Positions 33,344-57,759 of a DNA stretch of 64,000 bases are shown one piece after another; the stretch's first letter is position 1; every line of letters starts with the position of its first letter. The stretch is taken from the NCBI GenBank assembly GCA_027459745.1, contig DAIDHL010000002.1, positions 9,113 to 73,112 on the forward strand, given 5' to 3'. The DNA is from Candidatus Levyibacteriota bacterium. Lineage in GTDB: Bacteria > Patescibacteriota > Microgenomatia > Levybacterales > UBA12049. Below the pieces are notes generated by a model. It saw only the letters and a program-made list of their open reading frames with translations, was not told the DNA's origin and ran no database searches. The position numbers and the translations under genes were made by a program.

Positions 33344-33359
33344 CTATTATCTAATTTAG

Positions 33360-34428: not shown

Positions 34429-34518
34429 GGAGAGGTCGCATAGTGGTCTAGTGCGGTGGTCTTGAAAACCACTGTGGGAGCAATCTCACCGCGAGTTCGA
34501 ATCTCGCCCTCTCCGCCA
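34429..34518 (+). tRNA. tRNA-Ser (TGA) with encoded CCA
   Basis: GGAGAGG acceptor, anticodon stem GTGGT/ACCAC with loop CTTGAAA, long variable arm, T-arm GCGAG-TTCGAAT-CTCGC, G73 plus CCA. Confidence 0.85.
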
Positions 34519-37190: not shown

Positions 37191-39431
37191 ATGTTCTCCT
37201 CTGTCCGGAAATTTTTTTTCCTAGTAATCTTGCTAGGACTACTTTTTTTAGCTCCAAAATTAGCTTTTGCTCAAACTGTAAATAATTCAACCTCTTATTC
37301 TAATCAATCTACACAATCCACTGCTATGGTACAACATGACAAAGTTCAACAGTTGATGATTGACGTCCTAAGTGCTTTTAGCTGCCAGTTAGCGGGATAT
37401 GATGCAGCTTTTCCTAATCAACCCTGCGTAACCACAAATACAAAAACTAACACATATGGAACAAGTAATGTTAAAAACTTTGGTTTAATAGGCCTAGAAG
37501 TGCAAGGAATGCTATTAACTTTCACCCCAGTTGCTCATACCGGAACATACATACAAGATATGACTAGTAACTTTGGCCTTGTTAAACACGCCGATGCAGC
37601 TACTGATCCTTGTGCAACTGGTGGGACTTTTGGACAAGGTGTAGGTTACTGTCAACTATACCCTCTCCTACAAATTTGGTCTGTGATGAGAAATCTGGCC
37701 TATCTGGGATTTGTTTTTGTTTTTATCTTAATTGGTTTTGCTATTATGCTTCGCTTGAAGCTAAATCCGAATACAGTTGTCAGCATACAGAATACTATTC
37801 CAAAAATTATAATTGCTTTGGTGTTAATTACCTTCTCTTACGCTATAGCTGGTTTTTTGGTAGATATGATGTATGTATCTATTGGTGTAGTTATTAAACT
37901 AGGAACTCAGGTTGATCCTTTAAGTACCAATAATGCTAATGTCACCATCCCATCTATAATGGGAGACTTGCAGGGAGATAATCCTATAAGCTACGCCAAC
38001 CAAATGATGGGACTTTATGGTACATCTAATACAGCAGCCCAAGCTTTAGGTAATGCAGCTGGCGATATAATAGCCTCTTTTGGAGATGCAGGAAGGATAA
38101 TGGCAGCATTAGTAGGAGGAATCGTGGGAGCTAAGGCAGGAGCAGCTGCAGGAGGATTTTTACAAATTGCAGGAAGTGTTATTGGAGGAGTAGCAGGAAC
38201 ATTTGTTGAGCCAGGAGGTGGATCCGCAGCAGGAGCTGCATTAGGAGGAGGATTAGCAACCGCGCTTGGAACTGCATTAGGATTTGTAGCTGGTGCAGTA
38301 GCTCCAGGTCAAACTATAGCGTTTATGGGTGAGATAATTGGTACCATAGTTCTCTTCATTGCTATATTTATCTCACTCGCTCAACTCTGGCTTGTGTTAC
38401 TTAAAGCATATATCACCATACTTATTGATGTGGTATTCGCACCATTTTGGATTTTGTTGGCCATTGTACCTAAATCAAAATTTACTTTTGGTTCCTGGGT
38501 AAAGGATATGCTGGCCAACCTAGCTGTCTTCCCTATGGTCATCGGCATTTTTGAAATTGGGAAAATCTTTATTGATGCATTTCGCCAACATTATGACTCA
38601 GGCAGATTATTTGCTCCTCCATTAGTAGGCTTAAATACAGGTGGAGAAGGAGCTACTGCACTACAAGCAGTCATAGGCTTAGGTTTTATTTTCCTTGCTC
38701 CTTCTGCTCTAGGCTTAGCCCGTTCCATCTTTGGGGCGCCAAAGTCAAGTCTAATTCAAAATTCTATTCAAGGCTTACAACTTGGAGCTAGCAGAGCAGG
38801 AGCACTATGGGGACAAACAGGTGGCCGCCTAGTAGGAGTAGATAAAAATGGCAATCCTAAACCTTTTACTTCTATACTAGCTGAGAGAAAACGCGAAGCC
38901 GCAGAAGTACGTAATGAGAGATATGCGCAACTACAACATCTTGCATCTAAGCCTGGTGAGAAACTTAGTCTAGGGCAGAAACTACAAATGGGTTACTATC
39001 AAAAGCGCCAGGGATTTGCTAGTAAATTTTCAGAGCCCTTTAAAACATCTCAGCGGATGCTTAAGTTTAATGATACAGTTTTATCTATCATTCACGACAT
39101 TGAACATGATCCAAAACTTGGCCGAGAAGCTTTAAATCGGGGAGATGCATTTGAGACACTTATAATTCCCAGAATCACTGCAAAATTACGTCATGAGACA
39201 AATAATTCACGCCTCGAGCTTGATGATCGAGCCATACTACAAGCGGCTAGAGTATCTATGACAGAAAAGGGTCAGCCTATGAGACAAGATCAAATTAATG
39301 TGCTAAAGAAGAGAATTGAAAGTAAAATTGAGGCAAGAGACCATAAGGGTGCCAATGTTGAAATTGACCTAACCCAGGCAGATAGTAATTTTACTCCACA
39401 GCCAGTCTCCCCAGGTCAGCCTAAGCCTTAA
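37191..39431 (+). CDS. VirB6/TrbL-like polytopic membrane protein with Gly/Ala-rich segment
   Basis: Signal peptide, at least 6 TM helices, G/A-rich linker (GAKAGAAAGG...GGGSAAGAALGGG), then a charged C-terminal domain. The context includes VirB4 and pilins. Confidence 0.45.
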   Translation: MFSSVRKFFFLVILLGLLFLAPKLAFAQTVNNSTSYSNQSTQSTAMVQHDKVQQLMIDVLSAFSCQLAGYDAAFPNQPCVTTNTKTNTYGTSNVKNFGLIGLEVQGMLLTFTPVAHTGTYIQDMTSNFGLVKHADAATDPCATGGTFGQGVGYCQLYPLLQIWSVMRNLAYLGFVFVFILIGFAIMLRLKLNPNTVVSIQNTIPKIIIALVLITFSYAIAGFLVDMMYVSIGVVIKLGTQVDPLSTNNANVTIPSIMGDLQGDNPISYANQMMGLYGTSNTAAQALGNAAGDIIASFGDAGRIMAALVGGIVGAKAGAAAGGFLQIAGSVIGGVAGTFVEPGGGSAAGAALGGGLATALGTALGFVAGAVAPGQTIAFMGEIIGTIVLFIAIFISLAQLWLVLLKAYITILIDVVFAPFWILLAIVPKSKFTFGSWVKDMLANLAVFPMVIGIFEIGKIFIDAFRQHYDSGRLFAPPLVGLNTGGEGATALQAVIGLGFIFLAPSALGLARSIFGAPKSSLIQNSIQGLQLGASRAGALWGQTGGRLVGVDKNGNPKPFTSILAERKREAAEVRNERYAQLQHLASKPGEKLSLGQKLQMGYYQKRQGFASKFSEPFKTSQRMLKFNDTVLSIIHDIEHDPKLGREALNRGDAFETLIIPRITAKLRHETNNSRLELDDRAILQAARVSMTEKGQPMRQDQINVLKKRIESKIEARDHKGANVEIDLTQADSNFTPQPVSPGQPKP

Positions 39432-39436: not shown

Positions 39437-42430
39437 TCAAGCAGCCAGGTATCTTTGGGTAGACTTCACAATAGGATTAAACTCATTAATTACTTCTTTA
39501 GCCTTTCCTGGTCTTCTTAACTCTCTCATCAAATCTAGACTAAATAGATGCAATTCCGTGATACGTGCTTTGCGACGTAACCAACGTATATGTTCAGTAT
39601 TAAAGGCATTTCCTGAAGGTCTGTTGTTCTGCAAATTATCTGGATCTCTAAATTCCCCCTCTGGTATCGCTCGTAAAGCAGTAATTACAGAACGATAAAA
39701 TTTAGACCCATATCTATGATCAATTCCATATTTAATACGATGGTTAAAAACCTGCCCAGCCACAATATTGAGAAAGATACTCTTTACTAATTCCTTTCTT
39801 TCCTTCTGCACTTTTTTAACGTCGATTTCATGCTCACCAAACATATTATAGACAGGTACTTCCTTCATTTTTCCAGTCAACCTATCATATTTTTCTTCCA
39901 TTTTCCAAAAAGGTTTGACATCCAATACTTCTCGTCCAAACATTGCCACTGCTAAAGGAACCTCCACATAGTAGAAAAAAGTATCATATTCCACGTGCCC
40001 TTCTTCATTTTTTACTATATTTCCATCGGCATCACGCTTGGGATAGCTTATCTCTTGCTGCATCTTATACTTCTGGGTAAAATCAGTTTTACCCCACGTA
40101 CTGTACATATTGTAGATTTTCTTCAGAATGTCATTTTGTACCTGTTCACCAAATTCTTTTTCTTTCAAGGTGAACTGTTTATCTCTATCATCGAAATGAG
40201 TATAGTCATCCCATTTTATCTCTTTTCCAGAACTGACAATGTCAAACACAGCAGCGGCATTTTTCAAATGATCACGAATATACTGTGTTTGTTCATTACG
40301 ACCGAAACTAAGATTTTCTGTTTGTTTTTTATAGTCTCGCTGAGCTTTCTCCTCCATTTTTCTCTTATCCTCTTCAGTTAAATTTTTATTGTCCTTACTC
40401 TTTTTTAATTTCCTCGTTGTTACATCAGCCGCCTCACGCAGGTGAAAAAATTCTTCTGCGATACTCGTACCACCATCTGTCGAAGAGGCCCAGAAGAAAG
40501 GCGTTGCAGTTTCGTTGAAAACATTTAGTGTGGTAATTGCTCCGGAATAACGCATACGTCCTCGTAATTCTCGTAACCGATTGCGTAAGGTACGAAACAT
40601 TTTGGAGCCACTGAAATTTCTCGATTCCACATCTAACATAGCCACAATCCCGGTCGTATAGGCAAAATTTTCAGCCATTAAAAAAGCAAAGCTTAAGTTG
40701 TCAGAATCAACGATATTTTTCTTTTGACCATTTTCAACGACATCTACCGTCAAATCATATCTTTTAGCTACCATTTCATTGATAATGTTACGTACAGCGG
40801 TAAAGATAATGTTATTTTTCTGAGGCGTGTTATATAGATTTACTAGATCTATCATATAACGATCGGGATTTTTCTTTGCATTTTTCCATTGACCATCAGT
40901 CTTTTCTAAATTTGCCAAAACTTTTTGTGGATCCTGATGCCTGGAGTCTTTTCTGACTACATTTATCACTTCTTTTTCCAGTTCAGAAAAATTAAGCAGC
41001 CTGCATCCTTCAGGATAAAGTGCTTCAAGACTCTGCCTATCACCCAGTGACATAATTGTTTCTACCATCAACAAAAATGCATAACCCATCTTATTATCAG
41101 ATTTCCTACGCACGATTCCTGTCTCAGGATCTTTATCAACTGCTGTTGTATAATTTTGGGGAAGAGTAGCTAAAAACTGCATTAAGCTGGTATCCTCGTC
41201 ATAAAAAGGATCTGTCAAACGATTTTCTGCATAATGCTTAGCTAACAATTCTACATATTGAGCGGGATCTCCACCCCCATTTTGGCGTATATCTACACCG
41301 TAGGTACGTATCAAAGTAGCTGCAAATAACTCCTTGGCAATTGCATTTCCCAGGCGGAACAGGCGATCATCCTCCTTGCCATTAACTCTCTTTTTTCCAA
41401 ACAATTTACCTTGTTTGATAACAGTTTCCACATATAGATTAACCTGACGTGCCCCAACCTGGAAAGAAAGCTTGTCGGGGAAACTCACTTGCGCAGTATA
41501 TGGAGATTCACTTGCATAAAAGTTTATACGCTCACGTACAAAACGCATCACGTTCTCCTCATTCACAGTAACATCGACTTCTTTACTATTGCCCTTTTTT
41601 CTTCTCGGTCGTTTAGATCCATCTCTGGCTATTTCCCACGAATTGACAGTTACTAAAGGGAATGTACCTTCTATATTTTCGTCATTTAAACCTTTACCAT
41701 TAGACCCCTTAGTTCCATCCTTGGCTCCCCATTTATATACATCTACACCTGTAGATAAGTAGTAAAATAACTCCTCGGCACTATCAAATGATTGCATTTT
41801 TTCCTGAGCCTTTAATTGACCTTCTACAATATCTGACTCATTATGCTCTGCTAATGGTATAGTTCCCTGAGATTGATTTTGATCTTTTTGCTGTCTAGCC
41901 CTTCGTCGTTGGGTTAATTCATCCACAGGCTCTGAAGGAGTTGAGGTCTCATCTACTTCAGCTGCAGATCCACCTCGACTCGTTAACCGACGTAGCAAGC
42001 CTGCAAAAGCTGTCTTGGCTTTTTGCAACTTCTCAACATTCTTACGTCTTCCTGCCCGTTCTTCATCACTTAGTTTTTCCTCAACCTTGGCTAGTAGCGG
42101 TTCGATGTCTGAAATCTGTACTTTATCTCTGCTGAGTGCTTTGATACGAATTTTATCAGCCTTTTCTTGAAAATCAATTGGTACCAGATCGGAAAGATCA
42201 TCTACACCACCTATGCGAAAAAACTCGCTTAAATCAGAATAGCTGATATTTTCTTCTTCCCGCCGGCTACGACGTCTGCGTAAAGTATCAATATCTACTA
42301 CTTGTCCATTTTGATCATTATCATCCATAAGTTTTCTCTCATTTCCAGCATAACCTACTAGAGAAGAGGGTGTCAAACCGTTTATGATCTCACTTTGTTC
42401 TAAAATATACTTTTCTACCATACTAGCCAA
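39437..42430 (-). CDS. Large (997 aa) hydrophilic hypothetical protein
   Basis: No TM or recognisable catalytic motif. Highly charged. Confidence 0.5.
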   Translation of the reverse strand: MASMVEKYILEQSEIINGLTPSSLVGYAGNERKLMDDNDQNGQVVDIDTLRRRRSRREEENISYSDLSEFFRIGGVDDLSDLVPIDFQEKADKIRIKALSRDKVQISDIEPLLAKVEEKLSDEERAGRRKNVEKLQKAKTAFAGLLRRLTSRGGSAAEVDETSTPSEPVDELTQRRRARQQKDQNQSQGTIPLAEHNESDIVEGQLKAQEKMQSFDSAEELFYYLSTGVDVYKWGAKDGTKGSNGKGLNDENIEGTFPLVTVNSWEIARDGSKRPRRKKGNSKEVDVTVNEENVMRFVRERINFYASESPYTAQVSFPDKLSFQVGARQVNLYVETVIKQGKLFGKKRVNGKEDDRLFRLGNAIAKELFAATLIRTYGVDIRQNGGGDPAQYVELLAKHYAENRLTDPFYDEDTSLMQFLATLPQNYTTAVDKDPETGIVRRKSDNKMGYAFLLMVETIMSLGDRQSLEALYPEGCRLLNFSELEKEVINVVRKDSRHQDPQKVLANLEKTDGQWKNAKKNPDRYMIDLVNLYNTPQKNNIIFTAVRNIINEMVAKRYDLTVDVVENGQKKNIVDSDNLSFAFLMAENFAYTTGIVAMLDVESRNFSGSKMFRTLRNRLRELRGRMRYSGAITTLNVFNETATPFFWASSTDGGTSIAEEFFHLREAADVTTRKLKKSKDNKNLTEEDKRKMEEKAQRDYKKQTENLSFGRNEQTQYIRDHLKNAAAVFDIVSSGKEIKWDDYTHFDDRDKQFTLKEKEFGEQVQNDILKKIYNMYSTWGKTDFTQKYKMQQEISYPKRDADGNIVKNEEGHVEYDTFFYYVEVPLAVAMFGREVLDVKPFWKMEEKYDRLTGKMKEVPVYNMFGEHEIDVKKVQKERKELVKSIFLNIVAGQVFNHRIKYGIDHRYGSKFYRSVITALRAIPEGEFRDPDNLQNNRPSGNAFNTEHIRWLRRKARITELHLFSLDLMRELRRPGKAKEVINEFNPIVKSTQRYLAA

Positions 42431-42572
42431 ATTTTAGGTTTGAAAAATAAGTGAAACTTGATATTCAAGTAACAAGAAGTTATCAGTAGGCTAACAATTG
42501 TGTAAATTGCCCAATTAAAAAAGATGTTAATCTATAACAAGTTTGAAGTTTAGTTTTCTAATCTATATCTAT

Positions 42573-43913
42573 TCAAGGAGTAAACTTAAAGCCCCTACCT
42601 TTCATGGTCATAATGTGAGTAGGCTGACTGGGATTATCTTCAATTTTTTTACGCAACCTGAGTATTAATTGATCCAAAGCTTGCTCTGTAACTCCTGATA
42701 TAGATTTGTTTTCTCCCCATACCACCTCAATAATTTTTTCTCTATCCACAATTTGTTCGGGATTTAACAAGAAGTATTTAAGTAATCGCAATTCGGATGC
42801 CGTTAAATCATCAGATAGAATTAAACTCCCCTTATGAATTATATTCTTATCAATATCCAATTCTATTTGATCTTTGCTGGCAATTAAAATATTAGAATTT
42901 TTACTTAAAAACTCACTAAAAAGCGGTATGGTTAATTTATTTTCTCTAACTAAGCCTATTTTCTCCAAGTACCGTTCAATATTTTGATTTTCCTCATTTC
43001 TATTTTTACCCAGTATCCACATTTGTTCCGATGGGCTAAAAACATTCCACAGTTCTTTCAACCCCCCTCTTATAGATGTCTGCTCAAGTAAAAAACTTAG
43101 CATTTGGGATTCTTTAAATTGCTCTTCCTTCACTAAATATGCTTCTGCCGCTAAACGGGTCAGCTTGCCATGCCCACTAGTTAAGCCAATAATTTCTTGG
43201 CGTACTTTGGAGGGGATGGTTTTCCCGGTAGCTCGTTCGATATAATCTAGGCGGAATTGTAATCCTGAAATATCTTTTAGATTTAAATATACTAGATGAC
43301 CAGCCAGAAACTCGTGGAAGTCGGAAAAAGTAACTGGCTCTATAAGCTCTTCCAGCGATTTGTTTAAGGAAAAAACTACGGAGAAACGATATTTAGCTCT
43401 ATTACGTAAAATACGCAGATTGGCAAAAAAAGCTGAAGTTAAATTAGGAATATAATCTTCAAAACGATCGAATAGGAACACAATTGTCATCTCTTCATCA
43501 ATAGCTAGATAATCAATTGCATGTTTTAAACCCTGAAAGAGTACCATTTCATCATTAAATGACAAACTTTCTTTGAATAGATTATTCACTTCCTCATAAA
43601 CATCCTCCATTTTACGCTGACGCAAAGATTCAAGTAGACTGAGAAACAAAAGTTTGGTAACTGAGAAAAGATTTTTTCCACGTAATTCAGAAAAATCAAC
43701 TAATACAAAATTAAACCATTTTTGGTTATCACCTAAATGACGTAGACGAACAAAGCGATTATACACTAATAAATGCAAGACTGTGCTCCTGCCTGCGCCT
43801 GGCAAACCTATAAGCTGACAGGAATTACCTTCTTTAATAAAAGAAAGGATTTTCTTGATTTCTTCAAATCTAGTTTCTTCCGGATAAAGCGATTCGAAGT
43901 GGGCAAGTTCCAT
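42573..43913 (-). CDS. Putative regulator: degenerate P-loop NTPase domain plus C-terminal OmpR/PhoB-type winged helix
   Basis: N-terminal 'IGLPGAGRST' (Walker-A-like with Arg in place of Lys) and 'IVFLFDRFEDY' (Walker-B-like). C-terminal 'LTASELRLLKYFLLNPEQIVDREKIIEVVWG...LRLRKKI...TMKGRGFKF' matches the Trans_reg_C wHTH. Confidence 0.6.
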   Translation of the reverse strand: MELAHFESLYPEETRFEEIKKILSFIKEGNSCQLIGLPGAGRSTVLHLLVYNRFVRLRHLGDNQKWFNFVLVDFSELRGKNLFSVTKLLFLSLLESLRQRKMEDVYEEVNNLFKESLSFNDEMVLFQGLKHAIDYLAIDEEMTIVFLFDRFEDYIPNLTSAFFANLRILRNRAKYRFSVVFSLNKSLEELIEPVTFSDFHEFLAGHLVYLNLKDISGLQFRLDYIERATGKTIPSKVRQEIIGLTSGHGKLTRLAAEAYLVKEEQFKESQMLSFLLEQTSIRGGLKELWNVFSPSEQMWILGKNRNEENQNIERYLEKIGLVRENKLTIPLFSEFLSKNSNILIASKDQIELDIDKNIIHKGSLILSDDLTASELRLLKYFLLNPEQIVDREKIIEVVWGENKSISGVTEQALDQLILRLRKKIEDNPSQPTHIMTMKGRGFKFTP

Positions 43914-44003: not shown

Positions 44004-46478
44004 ATGAGAAAGTCCCTTTTAAATATTCCTTCTATACTTATTTTCTTTAGCTTGTTAGTTTTAATTCTTATATTGCAAATTCTGCCTATAAAAACCGCGC
44101 AGGCTGCAAGCGGCTCTTATGACTATATACCTGCAGGATGCCCTCAAGATCAATGGCATTATGATTCAAGTAAGAAAACCTGGACTAACGACAAAAGTAA
44201 TAATACAAATATGCCTGATACTTGTTATAGCTATGGATTACAGACACCAGATGAAGGCGGACAGATATGGCCACAAGATGGGAGCAAGCTACCAGATAAT
44301 ACAAGCCTGAATAGAGTAAATGGCACAGTCAATGCTAATGACAGGTATGTGAAAATTATAATTCACGGAAATTTTGTTTTAGGAGATCCCAAAAATGGTC
44401 AGTACGAAAGCTCTCTGAACGGTGCTTTCCATAACTTAAATAATGATTATTACTATTCCTTTGCTGTTGAAGATTCTAATGGAGGCATCCAACAAAATAT
44501 AATCTCCTTATTAAAATTCTGTGCTCCTAACTCTAACTCGGAAACTCTGGTAGATCTCTGTCTATATCACAATCATGGCGTTTCATATAGTGAAGATGGT
44601 ACCTATCCAGCTGATAATTCCTTTGGACAGCCAATATCAATTGACAAACAAATCCCAGATATCGGTACTGTAGTAAATCTAGTATCAAGTGCAGGCTATA
44701 AAACTAATGAACTTGTCTTTTACATACCAATTAAGAGCTCTAATTCCGATCTTACACTGAAAACTGTTCAATTTGCTGTTTGGCAAGGTAGTGACCCCTT
44801 AAAAAATATAGATGTATGGTGGAATAATATAATTGCACAAGGAAGTTTTGTAGTTGGAGCACAAGGTAGCGCAAGATTAGGTAGCCCAGGTATAGTTATA
44901 CAACCACGCGGAGGTGCGGCAACAGGTACTGAATATACTTATCAAACAGGTCAACCTATTACAGTTAATTTAACCAATGTAGATAATTCAGTAGGGTACA
45001 CACTTGGACTATACGATATTAGTGATCCCAATAATACTCAACATCTAGAAGACTTATGGAGTAATCAAAAATTAGACCAGAATATTAATATATCTAATAA
45101 TGATAGTACTCTTAGTAGTGGCGGTAAGAGCACGTATAACTCAACTAATCATACTGAAACATTTACTCTTACAGCAAATAACAATTTTACCCAAAACCCT
45201 GTAATGTTATGTCTCTTTCAACCAATAAATGGGAGTAGTGATGTGGGTTGTACTACCACTACAAATTTTAATAGTGCTAACGGCACATCTGGTGAAGGTT
45301 TTGCAACAAGCCATGGTTTTATTGTAACTACATTATCGCCCGATAAGGTCCAGTCTCCCACCCGAGCTGCCGGTGCGTCCGGAGATGTAAAATGGACTCC
45401 CCTGACTACTGCTGTTGGTATGTTCTTACCTTGCAACAATGACCCCAGTCTTTCTGCCGCAAATGCTCCTTCTGTTAAAAACCTCGGCACTAAAGGCGTT
45501 GACTCAAATCAATTTCTCTTTTCCGATGCCTGGAGTAATTTCCTTGCGGCAGCAAATTTCTTCTTTACCGGCCAATCGACCACACCACCTAACACAAATA
45601 GTAATCAACAGCTAGCTTATAACTCAACATCTTCACCTGAGTTTGCTTTGCAACCAGGCTCGGGAGTCAGTGGAAATGGAGGATTACAAGTCTATCCTAA
45701 TTCAGTTAAATATATGCAAGATTCATTGACTTTATATTTCACGACACCAACAAATGGAGTCAACGGAACATATAATATAAAAATAGAAAGAAATTCCGAT
45801 GCTGCATCAGTAGTAGACACCACAGTTAAGGCTTGTTCTAATCTAAAAGTTGGAGATACCTGCAGTATCCAAATACCAGTTAGTGATTTCCACAACATTG
45901 TAATTCCATACAATCAAAATGTTCCTTTTATAGTCAACATATTAGATAGTCAAATTGGTTTTGCTCAGTCTTTTCCAATTACAATGACCGGATATATTGC
46001 TTGTAATTACCCAGCAAGTACTTCTGACACACAAAATTTAAAATGTTATAACGGACAAACATGTGTAGATAATGTCTCCGGAAGTAGTCAAGGACATACC
46101 ACCGCAACATCAAGTTGTTCAAGCCCTGCTGCACCTAAATCCCCAGTAGGGACAAATCCTACAATCACTCCCACTATTGGTCCATTAGCTCCTTGTGTTG
46201 CTGTAGATACAGCTATGGGGAATATCAACACAGACCCAGTTGGGTTTATTCAGAGTTTATTTGGTATTTTGCTTAGCTTGAGTGGTGGAATAGCACTGTT
46301 GATTATCATCTACAATGGTTATCGTCTCATGATTTCCCGCGGCAACCCAGACGCCATCAAAAAAGCGCGTGAAGGTATTACCTCTGGTATCATAGGTATT
46401 ATCTTTGCTATCCTATCTATAGCCATATTACAAACCATTGGAGTCGATATTTTACATTTACCAGGATTTGGAAACTAA
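44004..46478 (+). CDS. Large secreted surface protein fused to a C-terminal VirB2/TrbC-like pilin module
   Basis: Signal peptide. About 720 aa S/T/N-rich extracellular region with Cys pairs. C-terminal '...LSLSGGIALLIIIYNGYRLMISRGNPDAIKKAREGITSGIIGIIFAILSIAIL' matches the two-helix pilin module of the three small pilin-like genes. Confidence 0.6.
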   Translation: MRKSLLNIPSILIFFSLLVLILILQILPIKTAQAASGSYDYIPAGCPQDQWHYDSSKKTWTNDKSNNTNMPDTCYSYGLQTPDEGGQIWPQDGSKLPDNTSLNRVNGTVNANDRYVKIIIHGNFVLGDPKNGQYESSLNGAFHNLNNDYYYSFAVEDSNGGIQQNIISLLKFCAPNSNSETLVDLCLYHNHGVSYSEDGTYPADNSFGQPISIDKQIPDIGTVVNLVSSAGYKTNELVFYIPIKSSNSDLTLKTVQFAVWQGSDPLKNIDVWWNNIIAQGSFVVGAQGSARLGSPGIVIQPRGGAATGTEYTYQTGQPITVNLTNVDNSVGYTLGLYDISDPNNTQHLEDLWSNQKLDQNINISNNDSTLSSGGKSTYNSTNHTETFTLTANNNFTQNPVMLCLFQPINGSSDVGCTTTTNFNSANGTSGEGFATSHGFIVTTLSPDKVQSPTRAAGASGDVKWTPLTTAVGMFLPCNNDPSLSAANAPSVKNLGTKGVDSNQFLFSDAWSNFLAAANFFFTGQSTTPPNTNSNQQLAYNSTSSPEFALQPGSGVSGNGGLQVYPNSVKYMQDSLTLYFTTPTNGVNGTYNIKIERNSDAASVVDTTVKACSNLKVGDTCSIQIPVSDFHNIVIPYNQNVPFIVNILDSQIGFAQSFPITMTGYIACNYPASTSDTQNLKCYNGQTCVDNVSGSSQGHTTATSSCSSPAAPKSPVGTNPTITPTIGPLAPCVAVDTAMGNINTDPVGFIQSLFGILLSLSGGIALLIIIYNGYRLMISRGNPDAIKKAREGITSGIIGIIFAILSIAILQTIGVDILHLPGFGN

Positions 46479-46481
46479 CAT

Positions 46482-46847
46482 ATGTTAAAAGATACCTTGC
46501 TAGCCCTTACTATTCCCGGCCCCAATAGCGGCACTACTAATATTACCCTACCCAATGCTGTAAGTTGCGGCAGCAATGGCTGTTTTAACACCATCATGCA
46601 AGGTATTGTTCAATGGCTGTTTGTCTTTGCAATTATACTTTGCCTAGCTTATTTAATCTGGGGAGGTATAGATTGGACCATGTCCTATGGGGATAAAACT
46701 AAAATACAGAAAGCTCGATTAAAACTTGTGTATGCCATCATAGGTTTATTTATTGTTTTCTTGTCATTCTTCATTATCAACCTAAGTGGTAAATTATTGG
46801 GGCTACCTCTCACCAATGTCAGCACACAAATAAATACTGCCCCATAA
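46482..46847 (+). CDS. VirB2/TrbC-like T4SS pilin-module protein
   Basis: Hydrophobic helix - 'LIWGGIDWTMSYGDKTKIQKARLKLVYAIIGLFIVFLSF' - second helix. Start is 4 nt after the preceding stop. Confidence 0.55.
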   Translation: MLKDTLLALTIPGPNSGTTNITLPNAVSCGSNGCFNTIMQGIVQWLFVFAIILCLAYLIWGGIDWTMSYGDKTKIQKARLKLVYAIIGLFIVFLSFFIINLSGKLLGLPLTNVSTQINTAP

Positions 46848-46868
46848 TTTCCTATATAATATGCCTGT

Positions 46869-48098
46869 ATGAGCAAATCATTATTTTACTGGTTAAGCGG
46901 GTCTATCTTGTTTATTTTGGCTGTAATTGCAATTATCGGACCCCGTACTCTCTTTGTCGATGTCAGTGAATATCACTGTTATGCGAGTTTATTTTGGACA
47001 GGGCATCTACAAAACAACCACCTCGAACAACAATACTGCAGACTTGACATCACCCACCTTCAACTGCACAAATACTCATTACCCCAAGAATATCCTTTCT
47101 TGAGTTTGGTGATTTTCTCGCTTCCTTTGCTTTCACCATTGGGTTACAGTCTTAGTTTTAGATTGCTGATGTTATTCTTTTTATTAACCATTTGGTGGTA
47201 TTTTTACAAAACCAAACAGTTTACTTCCGGTATAATTTTACTGCTATTTATTACGCTTGGTTTGAGCTCTGTGGCATTCAATCGTTATGACTTAGTTGCT
47301 TCGAGTCTAACATTTTTTGCCTTAATCCTGGCGAGTAAGAAAAAGTTTTGGTTAAGCTACATATTACTAGCATTGTCTACTTTCCTGAAAATTTATCCTT
47401 TATTTTTTATCCCTTTGGTTTTCATTTTGGAATGGCATAGCTTTAAGTCAAGCAGATTGCAATTAAAAAAATATTATCCTCTCTTATCAGGTCTTGTCGT
47501 TTTAACTATCCTTTTTCTGATATCTTTCAACATTAACGGTCCTCAAACTCTATCACCGTTAGCTTATCAGGTAGTACGGCCATTACAAATCGAGTCCACT
47601 CCTGCTTCAATATTCTTGTTATTTAGCGCAGGTAAAGTCTGTCTTAATCAATCTTTTGGCTCAATAAACCTAATGTCAGTTACTAACGGCCAGTGTCTGC
47701 CTAATTTGCTTAGCAAAAATCTAGAATTTTTTTTTAGTGGGTTAATGTTTATAAGTATCATCACTGTTTATATATCATGGTTTAAACGAAAAGTTATTTT
47801 TTGGCAAGCATGTATTCTACTACTCATAAGCTTAATTGTATTCAACAAAGTCTTAAGCCCACAATACTTTCTCTGGCTCGTACCATTCTTGGCCTTAAAC
47901 CGCAAAGGTTTTTCGTTAAACATATTTGTCTGGCTATTATTGCTTGGTTTGAGTTATATAATTTATCCTGTACTTTATTCTAGTCCACAGTTCCCACTTA
48001 GTTATATATTCTCTGTAATATTAATACGGAATATTTTATTATTTTCTCTCTATGTGTATACTTGGAAAGAAGCGGTTAGCACGCATAATAGTAAATAG
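46869..48098 (+). CDS. Polytopic membrane protein, possible GT-C / O-antigen-ligase-like glycosyltransferase
   Basis: 10-12 predicted TM helices with no soluble domain. Embedded between pilin genes. Confidence 0.4.
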   Translation: MSKSLFYWLSGSILFILAVIAIIGPRTLFVDVSEYHCYASLFWTGHLQNNHLEQQYCRLDITHLQLHKYSLPQEYPFLSLVIFSLPLLSPLGYSLSFRLLMLFFLLTIWWYFYKTKQFTSGIILLLFITLGLSSVAFNRYDLVASSLTFFALILASKKKFWLSYILLALSTFLKIYPLFFIPLVFILEWHSFKSSRLQLKKYYPLLSGLVVLTILFLISFNINGPQTLSPLAYQVVRPLQIESTPASIFLLFSAGKVCLNQSFGSINLMSVTNGQCLPNLLSKNLEFFFSGLMFISIITVYISWFKRKVIFWQACILLLISLIVFNKVLSPQYFLWLVPFLALNRKGFSLNIFVWLLLLGLSYIIYPVLYSSPQFPLSYIFSVILIRNILLFSLYVYTWKEAVSTHNSK

Positions 48099-48146
48099 AT
48101 AAATAAAATATAATTTACACTTAAATCTTATTCATAATTAGACTCT

Positions 48147-49670
48147 ATGCCAATTATTTTATTCTTTAAAAAGCATTTATATTTTTTATTACTTTTCATT
48201 TTTTTTCTTTTATATACCTGCGAAGGAATTTATCTGCTCGATCCTGATTTTGGTTGGCATTTGCGTTTTGGTGAGATAGTACTACAGGCTCACCGCATAC
48301 CATTCAAAGATATTTTTTCCTATACGATGCCTACTTATAATTTTATCAATCATGAGTGGCTTTCTGATGTCATTATTGCCTCGATTTACTCTTTAGCTGG
48401 CTTAGTCGGAGTAGCTATCCTTTTTGCTTTATTTGTCACAGCTGGTTTGGTATTTGCAGTTAAAATTGCCCGTGCTAAAGATCAACTGGGATTTTGGTTG
48501 TCACTGTTAACTATGTTGGCCATAACCACGGTGCAGTTTGCCGGTATTCGCCCCCAGGCCTTGAGCTGGACTTTTTTTATCGTCGTCTGGTATTTGCTTG
48601 ATGTAGTAAAAAACAGATCGCGTTTTATAATCTTGCCCTTAATCTTTCTATTCTGGGCTAATATGCACGCTGCTTTTGCCCTGGGACTATTTCTCTTTTT
48701 TGTCAGTGTCGTCAATGCATTAATTAAGCGTGATAAAGATAGCTGGTACTTTTTTCTATCGTTTCTGGTTGCTACAGGAGTTACTTTAATAAATCCCTAC
48801 GGAATTAAATTATGGCAGGAAGTTATTCTGACTTCCGCATCACCACAAATTTCCCAGGTAGAAGAGTGGACGCCTAGTTTTACGCACATAATATTCCCCA
48901 TGTGGCTATTTGTTGATTTTTCTTTAATCTTACTTTGGTTTAATCGTGCAGATATATCAAAAAAAAACATTTTCTTAATGGCAGTACTAGGTATACTTTT
49001 TGTTACCGGTATTCGCCAAGCTCCCCTATTCATGCTGTTTTTGTTACCTCTTACTATTGAAGCGGTAAAAACATTTATCGATCAGGCAAGAAAGTACCAG
49101 TTTGCTCTTAAGCGCTTGCGAATAGCTTCGGTGGTGATAGCCATCATTACTGTTATTTTTTGCATAGTTAGCCTATGGCCTTTGGAGTCCAGTATTTGGC
49201 AAAGTCGCTTAAACATCTCAAGAAGCATCAGCTTAATATATCCTTCTGGAGCTGTGGCATATCTCCGATCCCATCCTTTTTTAGGAAATTACTACTCTAT
49301 TTATAACTGGGGAGGTTACTTAATTTGGCAATTACCAAACAAAAAGGACTTCATCGACGGACGAATGCCTACCTGGATTAATCCTAATGCACCAAAAAAT
49401 GAGAGTCAGAATGCGTTAAAAGATTTTCTTAAAATTAATAATCCTTCTTCTCTGAATGCAATAATACATAAATATGATATAACCACCTTAATAATATCTC
49501 CTTTAAAATTAACTCCTCCTTCATGTTGGTTATTACAAAAGTGGTGCAACCAAGTTGTTGCACAAAAAAATAAACAAAATCTGCCCTTAATCCATTATCT
49601 GCGGGTCAATGGCTGGCATCAAGTGACCCATGATAAGGTTTCAATAGTTTTTCAGAAAAAGGACATATAG
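48147..49670 (+). CDS. Polytopic membrane protein, GT-C-like glycosyltransferase candidate
   Basis: Over 10 TM helices. First loop 'DPDFGWHLRFGE' resembles acidic loop motifs of GT-C enzymes. C-terminal soluble domain. Confidence 0.4.
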   Translation: MPIILFFKKHLYFLLLFIFFLLYTCEGIYLLDPDFGWHLRFGEIVLQAHRIPFKDIFSYTMPTYNFINHEWLSDVIIASIYSLAGLVGVAILFALFVTAGLVFAVKIARAKDQLGFWLSLLTMLAITTVQFAGIRPQALSWTFFIVVWYLLDVVKNRSRFIILPLIFLFWANMHAAFALGLFLFFVSVVNALIKRDKDSWYFFLSFLVATGVTLINPYGIKLWQEVILTSASPQISQVEEWTPSFTHIIFPMWLFVDFSLILLWFNRADISKKNIFLMAVLGILFVTGIRQAPLFMLFLLPLTIEAVKTFIDQARKYQFALKRLRIASVVIAIITVIFCIVSLWPLESSIWQSRLNISRSISLIYPSGAVAYLRSHPFLGNYYSIYNWGGYLIWQLPNKKDFIDGRMPTWINPNAPKNESQNALKDFLKINNPSSLNAIIHKYDITTLIISPLKLTPPSCWLLQKWCNQVVAQKNKQNLPLIHYLRVNGWHQVTHDKVSIVFQKKDI

Positions 49671-49725
49671 TCATAGATTTACCCCTTGACAAGTAAGTAT
49701 AATTTTAACTAGAGTATAAATAGAT

Positions 49726-50151
49726 ATGAAATTTGATTTAAGAAAACCGTTTATTTTCGCATCTACCACTGCCGTTATGGGCGCAGCTGCTACATTACCA
49801 GCTTTTGCAGGTAATAGTAATTATGTTGGAATCTGTCCAACAGGATCATTTGCAGGAGTATGTAATCCGAATATAAGCACTCTATTGGGCAGTGTTATCA
49901 ATGTAGTCTTCGTTATAGCTATTCTTATTGCCTTGTTCTTCCTTATCTATGGTGGTATTCGTTGGATCATTTCTCAGGGTAATAAAGAAAAGGTCAATGG
50001 AGCTCGAGATATGTTAATAGCTGCTTTGATTGGATTAATTGTCGTCTTCTTATCATATTTTTTGCTTGGTTTGGTTATACAATTATTATTCGGACAATCG
50101 ACACAGAATTTGATTAATTCAGTAACTTCTAATGGTATTTTTAATCATTAA
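49726..50151 (+). CDS. VirB2/TrbC-like T4SS pilin-module protein
   Basis: Signal peptide (cleavage near AFA-GNS). '...LIYGGIRWIISQGNKEKVNGARDMLIAALIGLIVVFLSYF' two-helix module. Confidence 0.6.
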   Translation: MKFDLRKPFIFASTTAVMGAAATLPAFAGNSNYVGICPTGSFAGVCNPNISTLLGSVINVVFVIAILIALFFLIYGGIRWIISQGNKEKVNGARDMLIAALIGLIVVFLSYFLLGLVIQLLFGQSTQNLINSVTSNGIFNH

Positions 50152-50300
50152 TCTCTAGAAATTTATCCAAATTTCAACAGATAAACGCCAATTTTGTTTA
50201 TATGTCCCTAACTCTAATTGGTTTGTAAATAAAATCTTGTGTTTTCCCTCAAATAAACCCTTCAATTGCATTTGTAGACAAAATCAGCTAGATTATTGCT

Positions 50301-50654
50301 ATGGATTGGAATAATTGTTTGCAAAATATCACCAATAATGGCAATACGGTCGGACAAGCGGCTACATTAGGCTGTATTCCGGTACTTTTTTCTAACTTAG
50401 TAAACTCTGCCTTTATTTTTGCGGGTAGTATTGCTGTTATCTTTATCATCTGGTCAGGCATCCAATATATTATGTCCGGTGGAGACCCAAAAAAGGCCGA
50501 GACAGCACGTAAAACCATGACTTGGGCTATCATCGGGCTTTTACTTATTATCTTCTCTGTGGCGATTATAACCATCCTGGGATATATTACAGGAGCTCAT
50601 TGCATAACTTCTTTCGGTTTTACCAACTGTCAGACAAATATCACAGGTAATTAA
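50301..50654 (+). CDS. VirB2/TrbC-like T4SS pilin-module protein
   Basis: 'IIWSGIQYIMSGGDPKKAETARKTMTWAIIGLLLIIFSVAI' module. Confidence 0.55.
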   Translation: MDWNNCLQNITNNGNTVGQAATLGCIPVLFSNLVNSAFIFAGSIAVIFIIWSGIQYIMSGGDPKKAETARKTMTWAIIGLLLIIFSVAIITILGYITGAHCITSFGFTNCQTNITGN

Positions 50655-50691
50655 AAACTCAACGTTCTTGGTAGAAAACCATCATTAGATC

Positions 50692-51063
50692 TTAATTCTG
50701 GTTGGTGGAGTCAGCTTTTTCATTCTGCAGTACTTCTTCTAACTTCTGCCGGGTTTCTTTCAACTCCTCCTGATCCAAATCCGCGGGTTTCAATTGTTGC
50801 ATTTCTGCTTCTGTCTTATTTTTTATTCTGATGTAGAAATCTTGATCAATCTTCTCGCCGTTTTCGCTTTCGTCGTCCAAAGCTTTTTGGATATTTCTGT
50901 CCAGTCTCAACTTGTACAAAGCATAATAAGCATCCCAAATCAATTCATCCAACTCTGATTTTTTATCCGAAGATATGATATCAATTTGTTCAAGTAATAG
51001 CTTCTTGAAATCCTCCGCTATGGGTAATAGTCTAATTAGGTTTTTAGTTGAGAAATCTTTCAT
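50692..51063 (-). CDS. Acidic coiled-coil hypothetical protein
   Basis: 123 aa, E/D/K-rich. Downstream of the 981-aa gene on the same strand. Confidence 0.35.
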   Translation of the reverse strand: MKDFSTKNLIRLLPIAEDFKKLLLEQIDIISSDKKSELDELIWDAYYALYKLRLDRNIQKALDDESENGEKIDQDFYIRIKNKTEAEMQQLKPADLDQEELKETRQKLEEVLQNEKADSTNQN

Positions 51064-51069
51064 TATTTT

Positions 51070-54015
51070 CTATAAAGGATCTGCCAATTCTCTAATCTCT
51101 TTAATAATACTAGCACTCGCTTGGGCAAAATCATATGAAGAAATTACGTGGTTGTTTAACGCAGTGTAAACTTCAGTTAAAGTAGCGGTTAAATTAGGCG
51201 GAGTTCTGAAACCTCTAGGATGAGATAAAACAAAGTTATCTAACAAGTCGCAAAGCACATCAGGTGTTAAAGTTCTTGAAAGTAATCTAAAGCTTTCATT
51301 GGTATTTTCTCCTCGATATTGAAATAGCATATTCATAACTTCCAAGTAACCATAGGTATAAGCGGGATTGGCTTTTTCACTCGCCGATAATCTGGGATCA
51401 TCAGCATTTATAACCCCATTATTATCAAAATACTTTTCAGGGTGGATTTCTGAATCCTGACAAGCAATTCTCGCTTTTTCGAATTTACCTCCCAGGTTAA
51501 GAGATAACTTAAGAACATCTAATTCATCTTTACTAATTTGAGGCTCTTCAGACATATTAGCGGCTAATTCCTTTACCTCATTAACTTCATCCTGCACCAA
51601 CTCTCGTCTATTCCTCAGCCGAGCTTGATGCCGAGATCTAGCTTCATCTATAGCAAGAGCCAACCTTGGATCAGGCCCAGGAGCCGGCCATCGACCCTCT
51701 GCGACCATCATATCGTTTAATTCTGTCGCATCACGGGTTCTCAACATACGCTGACTTACTCCGAATCCCGTTAGATCTCGCAAAGCATCTTCGCGTGCTG
51801 TTCTGACAGCAGCTGGTCTTGTTGCTTCTTCTCTTCTGGCCTTGGCTTCGTTCATTAAATTTATTACCAGCAAACGGTGAGCAGCTGTATTGTTATCACC
51901 CTGAGACCACCCCACATTGGGATCCAAATTATGAGCCTCATTTATTCTCGCCAAAATCTGATTAACATTTTCCGATGCTAAGTGAGCCAAGTCTAACTGC
52001 ACTGCCGGATTTGCGGCTACTGCCCAACCTGTTATTTCCGTAAATTGTCTGCCCATATTATTCATCTGTCTGTCCCCATTCACATTAGCTCCGACTTTAT
52101 GCATTTCTCTCTCTTTTTCCTCGATTTCCAATTGAATTTGCTGAATATCAGTTATTTCTTTAGCTCGGTCTTTAGCTAATTGATTAATTTCAGCTAATCT
52201 ATCATTTAGCAACCCTTTATACATATCAATTATGCTCTTCGTTGTTTCGGCCCGAGCAGTAATAACTGAATCTGGTGTCCCAAGAGGAGGAGCAACATCC
52301 AATCCCAAATTATGTAAGGTAGTATCCCTTCTGGTATCATTATCTGTCCGAGCAGCTGCACGTTCAGCATCAAGAGCAGCCGGCTGATTTAAGGCCTCTC
52401 TCGTGGCAATAGCGGCAGCAATACCAGCTCTGCCTCCAGCTACCATATATGGATGAGCTGATAATTTTCTTATTGCTGCATCGACAGCGGCTTGAGCTTT
52501 ATCATATTCATCAAACTGTTTCTCTTCATCAGCTAAAATCCCTCCTTCTTTCATTAAATCCTCTTTTTGTGTTTGCAATTTTTTCTTTTCCGCCTCATAC
52601 ACCTTACCGCCTGCTTCTCTATCAGCTATTTTTTGCTTAATAACATCATCTCGTGAAATCTCTTCCTTATTTAAGACATCTATTGCCATCTCCGTTAAAT
52701 CATCCACCATACTTCGTTCTCTAGCTTGCTCCCATCGTTCTTTATTAACTATAAGATCTCCAGCATCTCCTCCTAAACGGTTAAACCAAGTCAAAACCTC
52801 TTCATCCATTTTTGTAGAAAGTTGTTGAATGGACGTTTCTGATCTACCAAAAAGTCCACCTCTTCTACGTCTAGTGTAAGCAGTTCCTCCTTGCAAATAT
52901 TGTTCTGGTAAGGCTGCAATATCTTTCGGTGGAATCCCTAATTTTTGTAAGGTTTGGAAGCGGGTCAATAAATATTCTACCGTTTGATTTTTTAGATTCT
53001 CAGGACTTACTACACTTTCGGCATCTCTGCCTCGTACACGTCTTAACGTTCCCCCTGCTATTCCAAAGTCATCCATGTCCAACCCAGTCATTTGTTTTAT
53101 AAACTGTCTTTCTATGGCCTTATGTTGCTGAACATCTACTGGATCCGTATCACGGTGCGCAAGACTTTCAAATCCGTTCACACAACTTTCCAAACTGATA
53201 GTCAAACCTTTTTTGCGTAAAGAATTAATAGCAGCTCCTAATCCAACCACACCGACACCGGCCGCACCACCCGCCGCGGCCGACCATGGAAAAGCAAGTG
53301 GCAAAACTTTACTTCCAATTAGAGCTCCGATGCCTCCTCCTGCACCCGTGATACCTGCTCTACCAATAACTTTGCCAATAGAACCAAGATTTGGCTCTAT
53401 TTTGTCATGCCAAACTTTATTTAGGACACCTTGATCAACCCCTAAATGAATGTTTTCATTTTGAACCACCTCGTTGCGCCTGAGTTCAGGATTACTTACA
53501 ACTTGCATACCCAAGGCAAAAAGCCTACGGGCAATATCCTGTTCCATTAACTTCATAGTTAATTTCCAACCTTTAGGATCCTTTAAAAACTCTCTTATCT
53601 TATTTTGGTCCGGCTTATACCCTATAATTTGATTGCTATTGCTGCTATCAATAATTGGAGAGCCTAATAGCTCAAATAGCTTTCTATCCGTGGTATGATA
53701 ATCACTGCGAAGCAGATCGTAATAGGTTCTGCCAGAACCTCTAGTTGGATCGAGTGAATTGGGAATTTCTGTCTTAGCTAAATCACTTAGTCTGGTAAGG
53801 TAATTTTCTAAAAAGGCGGCATGCTCATTAGTTAACTCCGTGCCAAAGTCCACTTCTCTACTACCTTTTATTGAAGGATTTATAAGGAATTCTGTTAATT
53901 GAAATGTCTGACCGCTTTTTACTTCACCTTTTGATTCCGCAGAACTATTTTTTTTCTCACCCTTTTTGGCTTCTTTCCCTTCTTCTCCTGTGTGAACTTC
54001 AGCTAAATCCGGCAT
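51070..54015 (-). CDS. Large (981 aa) hypothetical protein with one Gly/Ala-rich hydrophobic segment and long coiled-coil/Ala-rich region
   Basis: Segment 'GRAGITGAGGGIGALIGSKVLPLAFPWSAAAGGAAGVGVVGLGAAI' is membrane-like. The remainder is charged and helical. Confidence 0.5.
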   Translation of the reverse strand: MPDLAEVHTGEEGKEAKKGEKKNSSAESKGEVKSGQTFQLTEFLINPSIKGSREVDFGTELTNEHAAFLENYLTRLSDLAKTEIPNSLDPTRGSGRTYYDLLRSDYHTTDRKLFELLGSPIIDSSNSNQIIGYKPDQNKIREFLKDPKGWKLTMKLMEQDIARRLFALGMQVVSNPELRRNEVVQNENIHLGVDQGVLNKVWHDKIEPNLGSIGKVIGRAGITGAGGGIGALIGSKVLPLAFPWSAAAGGAAGVGVVGLGAAINSLRKKGLTISLESCVNGFESLAHRDTDPVDVQQHKAIERQFIKQMTGLDMDDFGIAGGTLRRVRGRDAESVVSPENLKNQTVEYLLTRFQTLQKLGIPPKDIAALPEQYLQGGTAYTRRRRGGLFGRSETSIQQLSTKMDEEVLTWFNRLGGDAGDLIVNKERWEQARERSMVDDLTEMAIDVLNKEEISRDDVIKQKIADREAGGKVYEAEKKKLQTQKEDLMKEGGILADEEKQFDEYDKAQAAVDAAIRKLSAHPYMVAGGRAGIAAAIATREALNQPAALDAERAAARTDNDTRRDTTLHNLGLDVAPPLGTPDSVITARAETTKSIIDMYKGLLNDRLAEINQLAKDRAKEITDIQQIQLEIEEKEREMHKVGANVNGDRQMNNMGRQFTEITGWAVAANPAVQLDLAHLASENVNQILARINEAHNLDPNVGWSQGDNNTAAHRLLVINLMNEAKARREEATRPAAVRTAREDALRDLTGFGVSQRMLRTRDATELNDMMVAEGRWPAPGPDPRLALAIDEARSRHQARLRNRRELVQDEVNEVKELAANMSEEPQISKDELDVLKLSLNLGGKFEKARIACQDSEIHPEKYFDNNGVINADDPRLSASEKANPAYTYGYLEVMNMLFQYRGENTNESFRLLSRTLTPDVLCDLLDNFVLSHPRGFRTPPNLTATLTEVYTALNNHVISSYDFAQASASIIKEIRELADPL

Positions 54016-54070
54016 ACACTTAATTATTACTTGATTATCTTCTAATAATCAAGTAAGCTTTAGCTATAAT

Positions 54071-55405: not shown

Positions 55406-55509
55406 AACTTTTCACAAAATCGGCACCACTTAGGCCTATATTTGACCCACTTTGATAATCTTGAACACAGATTTTTCACGTTATACACTTTTTGTAGGAG
55501 TGAGATACT

Positions 55510-57051: not shown

Positions 57052-57056
57052 AAACC

Positions 57057-57707: not shown

Positions 57708-57759
57708 TAGTAAGGTTATTTACTTTTACCCAACTAGGGAAGTCTGAATTAATTTAAAT

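Follow-up and report, generated by a model that had tools for sequence, protein, structure and literature searches.

We report that a large hydrophilic protein encoded in a type IV secretion system (T4SS) locus of a Candidatus Levyibacteriota bacterium belongs to an undescribed family, apparently restricted to Patescibacteria (or Candidate Phyla Radiation, CPR), and that one CPR T4SS subtype carries this family as an integral component, always at the same position. The gene, hereafter the target, is on the minus strand of a 64,000-nucleotide stretch of contig DAIDHL010000002.1; we call this whole stretch the window. The genome is of low GC content (∼38%). Housekeeping genes (MurD, TGT, a class I aminoacyl-tRNA synthetase and FtsH) lie upstream in the window, and a T4SS block of the Patescibacteria/CPR type begins at about 37 kb. 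The target protein may be a subunit or adaptor of the secretion machine, held close to the membrane.

The gene is real. An uninterrupted open reading frame (ORF) covers 39437–42430, with 997 codons if counted from a TTG at 42430. The original prediction, made from the DNA letters alone, took it as a 997-aa protein and left its minus strand unstated. The frame stands, but the TTG start, which adds three codons to the form called by NCBI, is unlikely. The NCBI-called form (39437..42421; database protein P0001) runs from an ATG at 42421 (M1) to a TGA stop at 39439–39437 and has 994 aa; a 963-aa form is taken up below with the promoters. Composition agrees with the description first given, of a highly charged protein without transmembrane (TM) segments, catalytic motif or annotation. 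Lysine and arginine make up 16.2% and aspartate and glutamate 15.7% (32% charged), the grand average of hydropathicity is −0.75, there is a single Cys, and the maximum 19-residue Kyte-Doolittle mean is 1.35, below that of a TM segment. A regular-expression scan of the target found no Walker A, HExxH, HUH, DEAD, CxxC or GxSxG motif.

Family, fold and position

The protein had been called an orphan, and by curated libraries and k-mer search it is one. Pfam, NCBIfam, PHROGs and PADLOC gave no match for it, PDB sequence and profile searches gave noise only, and a scan of viral contigs gave no relative. A k-mer-prefiltered homologue search with the full protein or with our alignment A1 returned the query itself only, low-complexity words having probably saturated the prefilter; a trimmed near-consensus core as query made this search productive. 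Likewise a scan of genome contigs found no relative with the window protein as query and worked with alignment A3. The exhaustive search showed that the protein is no orphan: a HMMER scan over 1.84 billion cluster representatives (50% clustering) yielded 82 representatives at E ≤ 1e-3, of which 57 also pass E ≤ 1e-10. P0002 (E = 7.5e-291) is 51% identical to the target across its full length and P0003 is 33% identical; other matches are mostly at 21–30%, aligned at residues ∼275–990. All members named at their source are a "hypothetical protein" of a Patescibacteria group bacterium or of Candidatus Levybacteria, all without a Pfam domain. When 49 members were scanned against Pfam at E ≤ 1, no recurrent family and no AAA or P-loop match emerged, and six long members (1500–1890 aa) matched nothing in Pfam. 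None of these searches connected the protein with a common housekeeping family.

Members share a core of ∼700 aa (residues ∼275–975; 39497..41599, minus strand), predicted to form an alpha/beta body. G446, G627 and H894 are invariant in family alignments, and N290, D442, D461, N528, D597, R615, F828 and G829 nearly so. Lengths range from 829 to 1890 aa, with an N-terminal ∼100–1100 aa that is variable in length and unalignable. The lineage-variable N-terminal region of the window protein (41795..42328, minus strand) is charged and predicted disordered at residues 32–56 and 150–209, with a confidently predicted helical module at residues 60–148 that is confined to close relatives. Cysteines number 0–3 per ∼1000 aa across the family, and 63 of the 66 full-length members lack a TM-grade segment. 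Divergence is greatest in the window protein, P0002 and P0003, which keep the consensus at 42–48% of conserved columns vs 70–82% for most others. Thirteen of 52 strongly conserved residues are replaced in the window protein, including R588, N596, D604, N628 and R770. The consensus tyrosines 378, 456, 614 and 771 become I, I, N and N in it, and the consensus HRDxH-type and RND...D motifs are degenerate in its subclade.

We modelled the window protein with AlphaFold2 from a 24-sequence alignment, and the near-consensus member P0004 with AlphaFold from 56 sequences. The first model had a mean predicted local distance difference test score (pLDDT) of 80 and a predicted template-modelling score (pTM) of 0.74, with residues 1–56 and 150–209 disordered, confident helices at 60–148, and the chain from ∼250 to its C-terminal end folded into a large alpha/beta body. 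The second had a pLDDT of 85.8, mostly above 90 in the core, and a pTM of 0.84. AlphaFold thus predicts the core (∼275–975) as one rigid unit. Foldseek of both models against PDB gave no match at E ≤ 1e-3 (best E 0.55 and 0.21, TM-score ≤0.13), nor did Foldseek against the BFVD viral library (best E 0.013, at TM-score 0.09). As modelled, and with PDB and BFVD searched, the core is a fold for which tools of this sensitivity show no solved relative. Recurring beta-hairpin-plus-helix units suggested an internal repeat, which we rejected when hhalign of eight segments gave probabilities of ≤1.4%.

For synteny we assembled 22 related loci: L001–L007 by exact-protein lookup (L003 duplicates L002) and L008–L022 by a pattern scan of GTDB species genomes. 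These were searched with the locus proteins of the window, and synteny was counted where the sequence covers the relevant side. As first described, a VirB6-like gene and a regulator flank the target. The VirB6/TrbL-like candidate (37191..39431, plus strand) has 746 aa with ∼7 TM segments and a ∼230-aa hydrophilic C-terminus; TrbL or VirB6 Pfam matches are weak (E ∼ 1e-3), in two of five homologues. The regulator (42573..43913, minus strand) has 446 aa, with an N-terminal P-loop NTPase domain and a C-terminal Trans_reg_C domain (E = 2e-19), an OmpR/PhoB-type winged helix. P-loop matches of the regulator and its homologues are weak (AAA_22, AAA_16, AAA_35, NPHP3_N, ORC3_N), that is, STAND/ORC-like; its PADLOC match (mad8, E = 3e-4) is weak too.

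Conservation across related genomes, a check proposed with the original prediction, proved strict: the triad of regulator, target and VirB6-like gene is kept in 22 of 22 related loci. A regulator homologue (E from 1e-76 to 1e-213) is found at every locus with sequence on that side, directly upstream of the target on the same strand in most. At every such locus there is also a VirB6-like homologue (E from 1e-49 to 1e-202), which without exception converges on the target, with stops a few base pairs apart or overlapping. The two stops are 5 bp apart in the window, and the genes overlap in L007, L015 and L020. Orientation of the regulator is flipped in L016–L019 and L021, while the junction of target and VirB6-like gene is invariant. 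The pilin array is divergent from the regulator–target side in related loci. PrgI and TrsD/TraC-like genes occur within 10 kb in L006, L008, L009, L016–L018 and L020, with VirB4 also, except in L020, and with pilins alongside. Over 66 genome pairs the regulator has a median identity of 47%, the VirB6-like protein one of 33% and the target one of 26%. The regulator is the most conserved gene of the block (∼1 bit per residue), unusually constrained for a CPR transcription factor. Metagenome-assembled genomes that contribute L008–L010, L013 and L016–L020 are titled uncultured Gammaproteobacteria bacterium, Limnocylindrales or Lysobacterales, some of them with contigs of 0.8–1.3 Mb; because the loci carry pilin genes and other parts of the CPR-type T4SS set, these labels are doubtful, probably placeholders or errors.

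A further trait, of most members, is a hydrophobic C-terminal tail. Of 66 full-length members, 54 have their most hydrophobic 15-mer (top 2% over the protein) within the last 45 residues. About 12 members look like genuine tail anchors (e.g. GIGLLLALSLAMKGII, IGFVAFLAALGFFIRAI), and a TM-grade C-terminal stretch (15-residue Kyte-Doolittle mean 1.7–2.3) occurs in P0006, P0012, P0022, P0032, P0033, P0038, P0048, P0053, P0058 and P0059. Many other members end in ...SFSIIxxAIFRGY. The last 30 aa are net-positive in 49 of 66 members. The tail of the window protein (39440..39574, minus strand, for the last 45 aa; ending …EVINEFNPIVKSTQRYLAA) has neither the AIFRGY motif nor a TM-grade stretch; it is only amphipathic and basic (+4 net in the final 30 aa), with a hydrophobicity rank of 0.067.

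Start sites and promoters

Many family members show an apparent N-terminal peptide, LT-x6-Y[A/N/T/D/P]-x(2-7)-M, which reads in frame in the window as LT......YA. It was considered as a docking or secretion motif and rejected, since the codon pattern puts the constraint on the DNA and not on the protein. Behind the peptide the DNA has the invariable form TTGAC[N]-N18-TAT[N][N]T: TTG is the only codon used for Leu and TAT the only one for Tyr, and the codon after Tyr is always NNT with varying amino acid. Because these codons are fixed while the amino acid after Tyr varies, we read the conserved element as a near-consensus sigma-70 −35/−10 pair, a predicted promoter that we term P2. In the window P2 lies inside the called ORF (42347..42376, minus strand), with −35 TTGACA at 42376–42371, N18, and −10 TATGCT at 42352–42347. 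It is the top-scoring promoter-like site in the window's 5-kb region. Besides the window, 17 of the 18 related loci with upstream DNA have the element, L006 with a 17-nt spacer and out of frame. It takes the same position in L001–L009, L011, L012 and L014–L020.

Downstream of P2 in the window comes a Shine-Dalgarno-like GAGAGAAAA (42340–42332) and then an ATG at 42328, codon M32 of the long form. In 88% of full-length family members a Met stands at this position, and members without an upstream extension begin at its equivalent, with M-[P/S/A]-[E/D]. Across loci the P2 element is 6–18 nt upstream of the M32-equivalent Met, with a Shine-Dalgarno-like GGAGG or GAGAG between them in several. Because P2 lies within the called ORF, the likely main product is the 963-aa protein from M32 (39437..42328, minus strand), and a longer isoform from M1 is possible. 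Gene callers thus systematically over-extend many genes of this family, as the promoter sits inside the ORF.

A second promoter-like region, P1, lies upstream of M1 (42431..42475, minus strand). It comprises TTGTTA (42475–42470), N6, a box, N19 and a −10-like TAAAAT (42436–42431), which is 9 nt from the ATG at 42421. The box ATATCAAGT lies within AATATCAAGTT (42465–42455), part of a palindrome ACTTGAATATCAAGT (42470–42456). The arrangement in related loci is TTGTAA, N6, (A)TAT[C/A]AAGT, N19, a TAnAAT-like −10, N6–9, and the first ATG (M1), such that box, −10 and ATG are conserved with a fixed 19-nt spacing. In 16 of the 18 arrangements examined (the window and 17 related loci) M1 shares its frame with the promoter and the long ORF; for the TTG and the long ORF this holds in 17 of 18. 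P1 has no canonical −35; a conserved box is there in its place, with two T(T/A)(G/T)(T/C)AA half-sites 12 bp apart, and for this reason P1 is a candidate for an activator-dependent, leaderless-type promoter. We further infer that the element TTGTTA-N6-TATCAAGT is a candidate binding site of the adjacent OmpR-type winged helix-turn-helix (wHTH) regulator. Elsewhere in the window, AATATCAAGTT has one 1-mismatch site, inside a gene, which is not above chance, and a looser 8-mer of the box is too common to inform. With conserved transcription signals of its own, the target need not be co-transcribed with the regulator, and P1 and P2 supply candidate cis-elements for the regulator of the locus.

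Role of the protein

The reading that we favour, with a probability of roughly 0.4, is that the target is a non-enzymatic, membrane-proximal cytoplasmic T4SS subunit or adaptor that docks on the VirB6-like protein. It is favoured because of the strict junction with the VirB6-like gene, the lack of catalytic motifs and of signals for export, the tolerance that the window subclade shows to losing consensus polar residues, and the hydrophobic tail. Lacking a signal peptide and a TM segment, the protein would stay cytoplasmic. Two things would hold it at the inner face of the membrane: its hydrophobic or amphipathic C-terminal tail, and contact with that part of the adjacent VirB6-like channel protein which faces the cytoplasm. 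The rigid ∼700-aa alpha/beta core of the target would be a non-enzymatic platform or adaptor for the translocon, occupying the position of the coupling protein or substrate receptor of canonical systems, a protein that is missing from these loci. The variable, disordered, charged N-terminal arm would reach lineage-specific partners or cargo. Expression would come from the gene's own promoters, the upstream one activator-dependent and probably answering to the P-loop/wHTH regulator, the second a sigma-70 promoter of consensus type inside the long frame, at its 5′ end. A non-enzymatic role is supported by the window protein itself, which keeps its synteny despite the loss of 13 of 52 conserved residues.

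Several points weigh against this reading. Docking on the VirB6-like protein is argued from gene position, and convergent genes are not co-transcribed. The target evolves fastest of the triad (26% vs 47% and 33%). The tails of the window protein, P0002 and P0003 are only weakly amphipathic. The long disordered variable arm and the few cysteines would also fit a translocated, host-facing substrate. "No known fold" covers PDB and BFVD alone. Finally, the T4SS locus of Southlakia (Saccharimonadia; SEML1_0006–0019) has no obvious counterpart in the published gene table (PMC10633639), so to judge from that table the target family is not universal to CPR T4SSs.

We find it plausible, though somewhat unlikely, that the target is instead a translocated substrate or effector, the main cargo encoded by the locus, which would be recruited by its termini, unfolded and delivered to a host bacterium where the core would act. 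Large locus-encoded T4SS substrates are known, CagA for example. The target is suitably large, hydrophilic and TM-free; members have 0–3 Cys per ∼1000 aa, and in 49 of 66 the last 30 aa carry a net positive charge. The N-terminal region of the target is disordered and hypervariable, and it is the fastest-evolving gene of the triad. Protein export has also been speculated in the literature for this T4SS, which lacks a relaxase (PMC10633639, PMC11665869). Yet a single-copy gene in strict position across deep divergence is more typical of a machine part, as is the predicted rigid ∼700-aa core (pTM 0.74–0.84). The tail is strongly hydrophobic or TM-like in many members, unlike the known hydrophilic or basic T4SS signals, and its hydrophobicity in most members favours a membrane-proximal component over a secreted effector; nor does a gene for a coupling protein or chaperone adjoin the target. 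By analogy with type III secretion systems and flagella, the target might alternatively be a partner of the P-loop/wHTH regulator, a sensor or anti-activator reporting the status of the machine or of host contact. STAND/ORC-like NTPase regulators are commonly under the control of protein partners. The regulator adjoins the target at every locus, mostly directly upstream on the same strand, and is unusually conserved, and the conserved box at the −35 position of P1 suggests a regulatory loop. But the regulator flips in L016–L019 and L021 while the arrangement of target and VirB6-like gene is constant, and a rigid protein of ∼1000 aa is very large for an anti-activator, so that we judge such a partnership unlikely.

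The roles first proposed for the protein included substrate, effector, relaxase- or primase-like enzyme and structural component; structural and substrate roles survive, and the enzyme is disfavoured by motif, fold and lost residues. Such a cryptic nucleic-acid enzyme would be a "very different relaxase", a primase or a nuclease working with the DNA-binding ATPase next door. Most CPR T4SS clusters lack a relaxase, and the authors of the survey allow for very different ones (PMC12102498); H894, D442, D461, D597 and R615 are invariant or nearly so, and the neighbour has a DNA-binding wHTH. We nevertheless think it very improbable. The target shows none of the HUH, catalytic-Tyr, TOPRIM, Walker and nuclease motifs, the consensus tyrosines are not kept in the window protein, and the HRDxH-type and RND...D motifs are degenerate in its subclade. 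Neither predicted model matches a relaxase, primase or nuclease fold; the HUH, TOPRIM, primase and nuclease folds that had been suggested as worth looking for turned up neither in the motif scan nor in Foldseek against PDB. We give almost no credence to an unrelated passenger such as a defence or mobile-element gene. A STAND-like NTPase beside a large unknown protein does resemble some defence operons, the regulator has the weak PADLOC match to mad8 (E = 3e-4), and a tyrosine recombinase and tRNA cluster lie ∼8–14 kb away, but the gene is embedded among T4SS genes in all 22 loci and the target has no PADLOC, PHROG or viral-contig match.

A wider claim, tentative in our view and more doubtful than not, is that this family, whose fold has no detectable relative, supplies the functional heart that a major Patescibacteria T4SS subtype seems to lack. 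The protein would then be either a substrate-receptor or coupling module in place of VirD4, or the principal translocated protein by which these epibionts act on their hosts, and would be made as two isoforms, from a regulator-dependent promoter and from a constitutive one within the ORF. The T4SS of Patescibacteria is widespread and chromosomal, essential for epibiotic growth in the one tested species, and its role is called "completely unknown" in these papers (PMC11665869, PMC12102498, PMC10633639). The relaxase, which is missing, and the coupling protein, which usually is, would otherwise tell what the system moves. A conserved ∼700-aa core, predicted to be cytoplasmic, between a VirB6-like protein and a P-loop/wHTH regulator gives a concrete, testable handle, and the family defines a marker of a T4SS subtype that current HMM sets miss.

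Surrounding genes and known systems

Placement of the target inside a T4SS-like locus, as first proposed, is borne out by the three T4SS_pilin genes, PrgI and VirB4-type ATPase around it. The rest of the block (44004..59889) is on the plus strand, with minus-strand genes interspersed at 50692–54015. Its first gene encodes an 824-aa pilin-fusion protein (44004–46478, plus strand) in which an N-terminal signal or TM segment is followed by a ∼700-aa hydrophilic region and a C-terminal, VirB2-like T4SS_pilin domain; homologues of this protein lead the pilin operon in most related loci. VirB2-like pilins follow at 46482–46847 and 49726–50151 (both plus strand). Between these are polytopic membrane proteins of 409 aa (46869–48098, with a weak GT87 glycosyltransferase match) and 507 aa (48147–49670), both on the plus strand. 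The two are conserved in the closest relative, L001 (2655–5433), and a homologue of the 507-aa protein is in L021 (2325–3818). The subclade of the window and L001 carries extra genes between the pilins and PrgI, and a role of the 409- and 507-aa proteins in pilin or envelope glycosylation is possible. Further along the plus strand are a PrgI/VirB3-like gene (55510–57051), a TrsD/TraC-like gene (57057–57707, 216 aa; its L006 homologue matches Pfam TraC-like) and a VirB4-type ATPase gene (P-loop_TraG/DUF87; 57760–59889).

The original prediction paired the target with a second protein of ∼1000 aa at 51070–54015 and suggested that the two may define the specific function of the locus. The pairing is not supported: this 981-aa protein shows no similarity to the target (BLASTP E = 0.53), and no homologue of it was detected in the 22 related loci. 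The target probably does help to define that function, its triad being in 22 of 22 loci. Overall, the original observation is partly confirmed and its interpretation partly supported. Within 50692–54015 the 981-aa hydrophilic protein (minus strand) is followed on the same strand by a 123-aa, very acidic protein (D+E 23.6%), a layout that resembles effector–chaperone pairs; homologues of the 123-aa protein are in L001 and L012. On the other side of the triad, a 253-aa acidic protein with a single TM segment and no Pfam match (33501–34262, minus strand) recurs a few kilobases beyond the VirB6-like gene in L001, L009, L011, L014, L015 and L020 (E from 1e-56 to 1e-120), and may be another unrecognised member of the block. 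Six tRNA genes, a XerC/D-type tyrosine recombinase (28088–28948) and a heavy-metal P-type ATPase (29998–31791) occupy 27348–34515, between the housekeeping genes and the T4SS block; this region may be a boundary or integration hotspot.

Established T4SS components were compared with the target one class at a time. Relaxases (MOB) and T4SS primases resemble it in that it is a ∼1000-aa cytoplasmic protein, as predicted, in a T4SS locus beside a DNA-binding protein. They differ in signatures and fold: for the HUH-type relaxase there was no HUH motif, no Pfam or NCBIfam relaxase match and no fold match, and at the variable, disordered N-terminus of the target no relaxase catalytic Tyr was found. 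For TOPRIM there were DxD strings at non-conserved positions only, with no Pfam or Foldseek match. The T4SS ATPases (VirB4, VirD4/T4CP, VirB11) have a P-loop; the target has no Walker A motif, and Pfam gave no AAA or P-loop match for it or for 49 members. VirB6/TrbL proteins have at least five TM helices; the target has no TM segment, and its neighbour at 37191–39431 fills that role.

Type IV coupling proteins (VirD4/PcfC/TcpA) are like the proposed form of the target in being cytoplasmic, membrane-tethered accessories of several hundred residues, encoded with the machine and placed at the channel entrance. Unlike them, the target shows neither Walker A/B motifs nor the FtsK/HerA-type fold, and no similarity in sequence or structure; whereas coupling proteins have an N-terminal TM anchor, the hydrophobic segment of the target family is C-terminal. 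CagA of the Helicobacter pylori cag island and VirE2 share with the target a large hydrophilic sequence with disordered regions, a lineage-specific fold, a place inside a secretion locus and fast evolution. They differ from it in that the target has strict synteny, a conserved core predicted to be rigid, a hydrophobic tail in most members and no adjoining chaperone; CagA chains in the Foldseek lists were non-significant (E 2.7–4.2).

The closest setting is the published T4SS set of Patescibacteria (Quinonero-Coronel 2025; Wang 2023), with which the window shares a pilin array, PrgI, TrsD/TraC-like, VirB4 and a divergent VirB6-like protein. The 2025 survey lists VirB4, TrsD, VirB3/PrgI, VirB6, VirB8, VirB1, VirB2 arrays, T4CP and relaxases, and in the sections read and searched it mentions neither the target family nor a Trans_reg_C regulator (PMC12102498). 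According to the same text, VirB6 of Microgenomatia is hard to detect, "suggesting extreme sequence divergence", and pilin arrays are especially abundant there (PMC12102498). The Southlakia tables (SEML1_0006–0019) hold large membrane proteins with ARM-like domains, and, as tabulated, no hydrophilic counterpart and no Trans_reg_C gene (PMC10633639). CPR T4SSs are described in the literature as chromosomal, without a relaxase and usually without a nearby coupling protein, essential in Southlakia and of unknown function (PMC12102498, PMC10633639, PMC11665869, PMC12857230), and the reviews among them state the role of the system as unknown (PMC11665869, PMC12857230). Set against the sections of this literature that were read and searched, the family appears to be undescribed, a new accessory family and fold inside a known kind of CPR T4SS.

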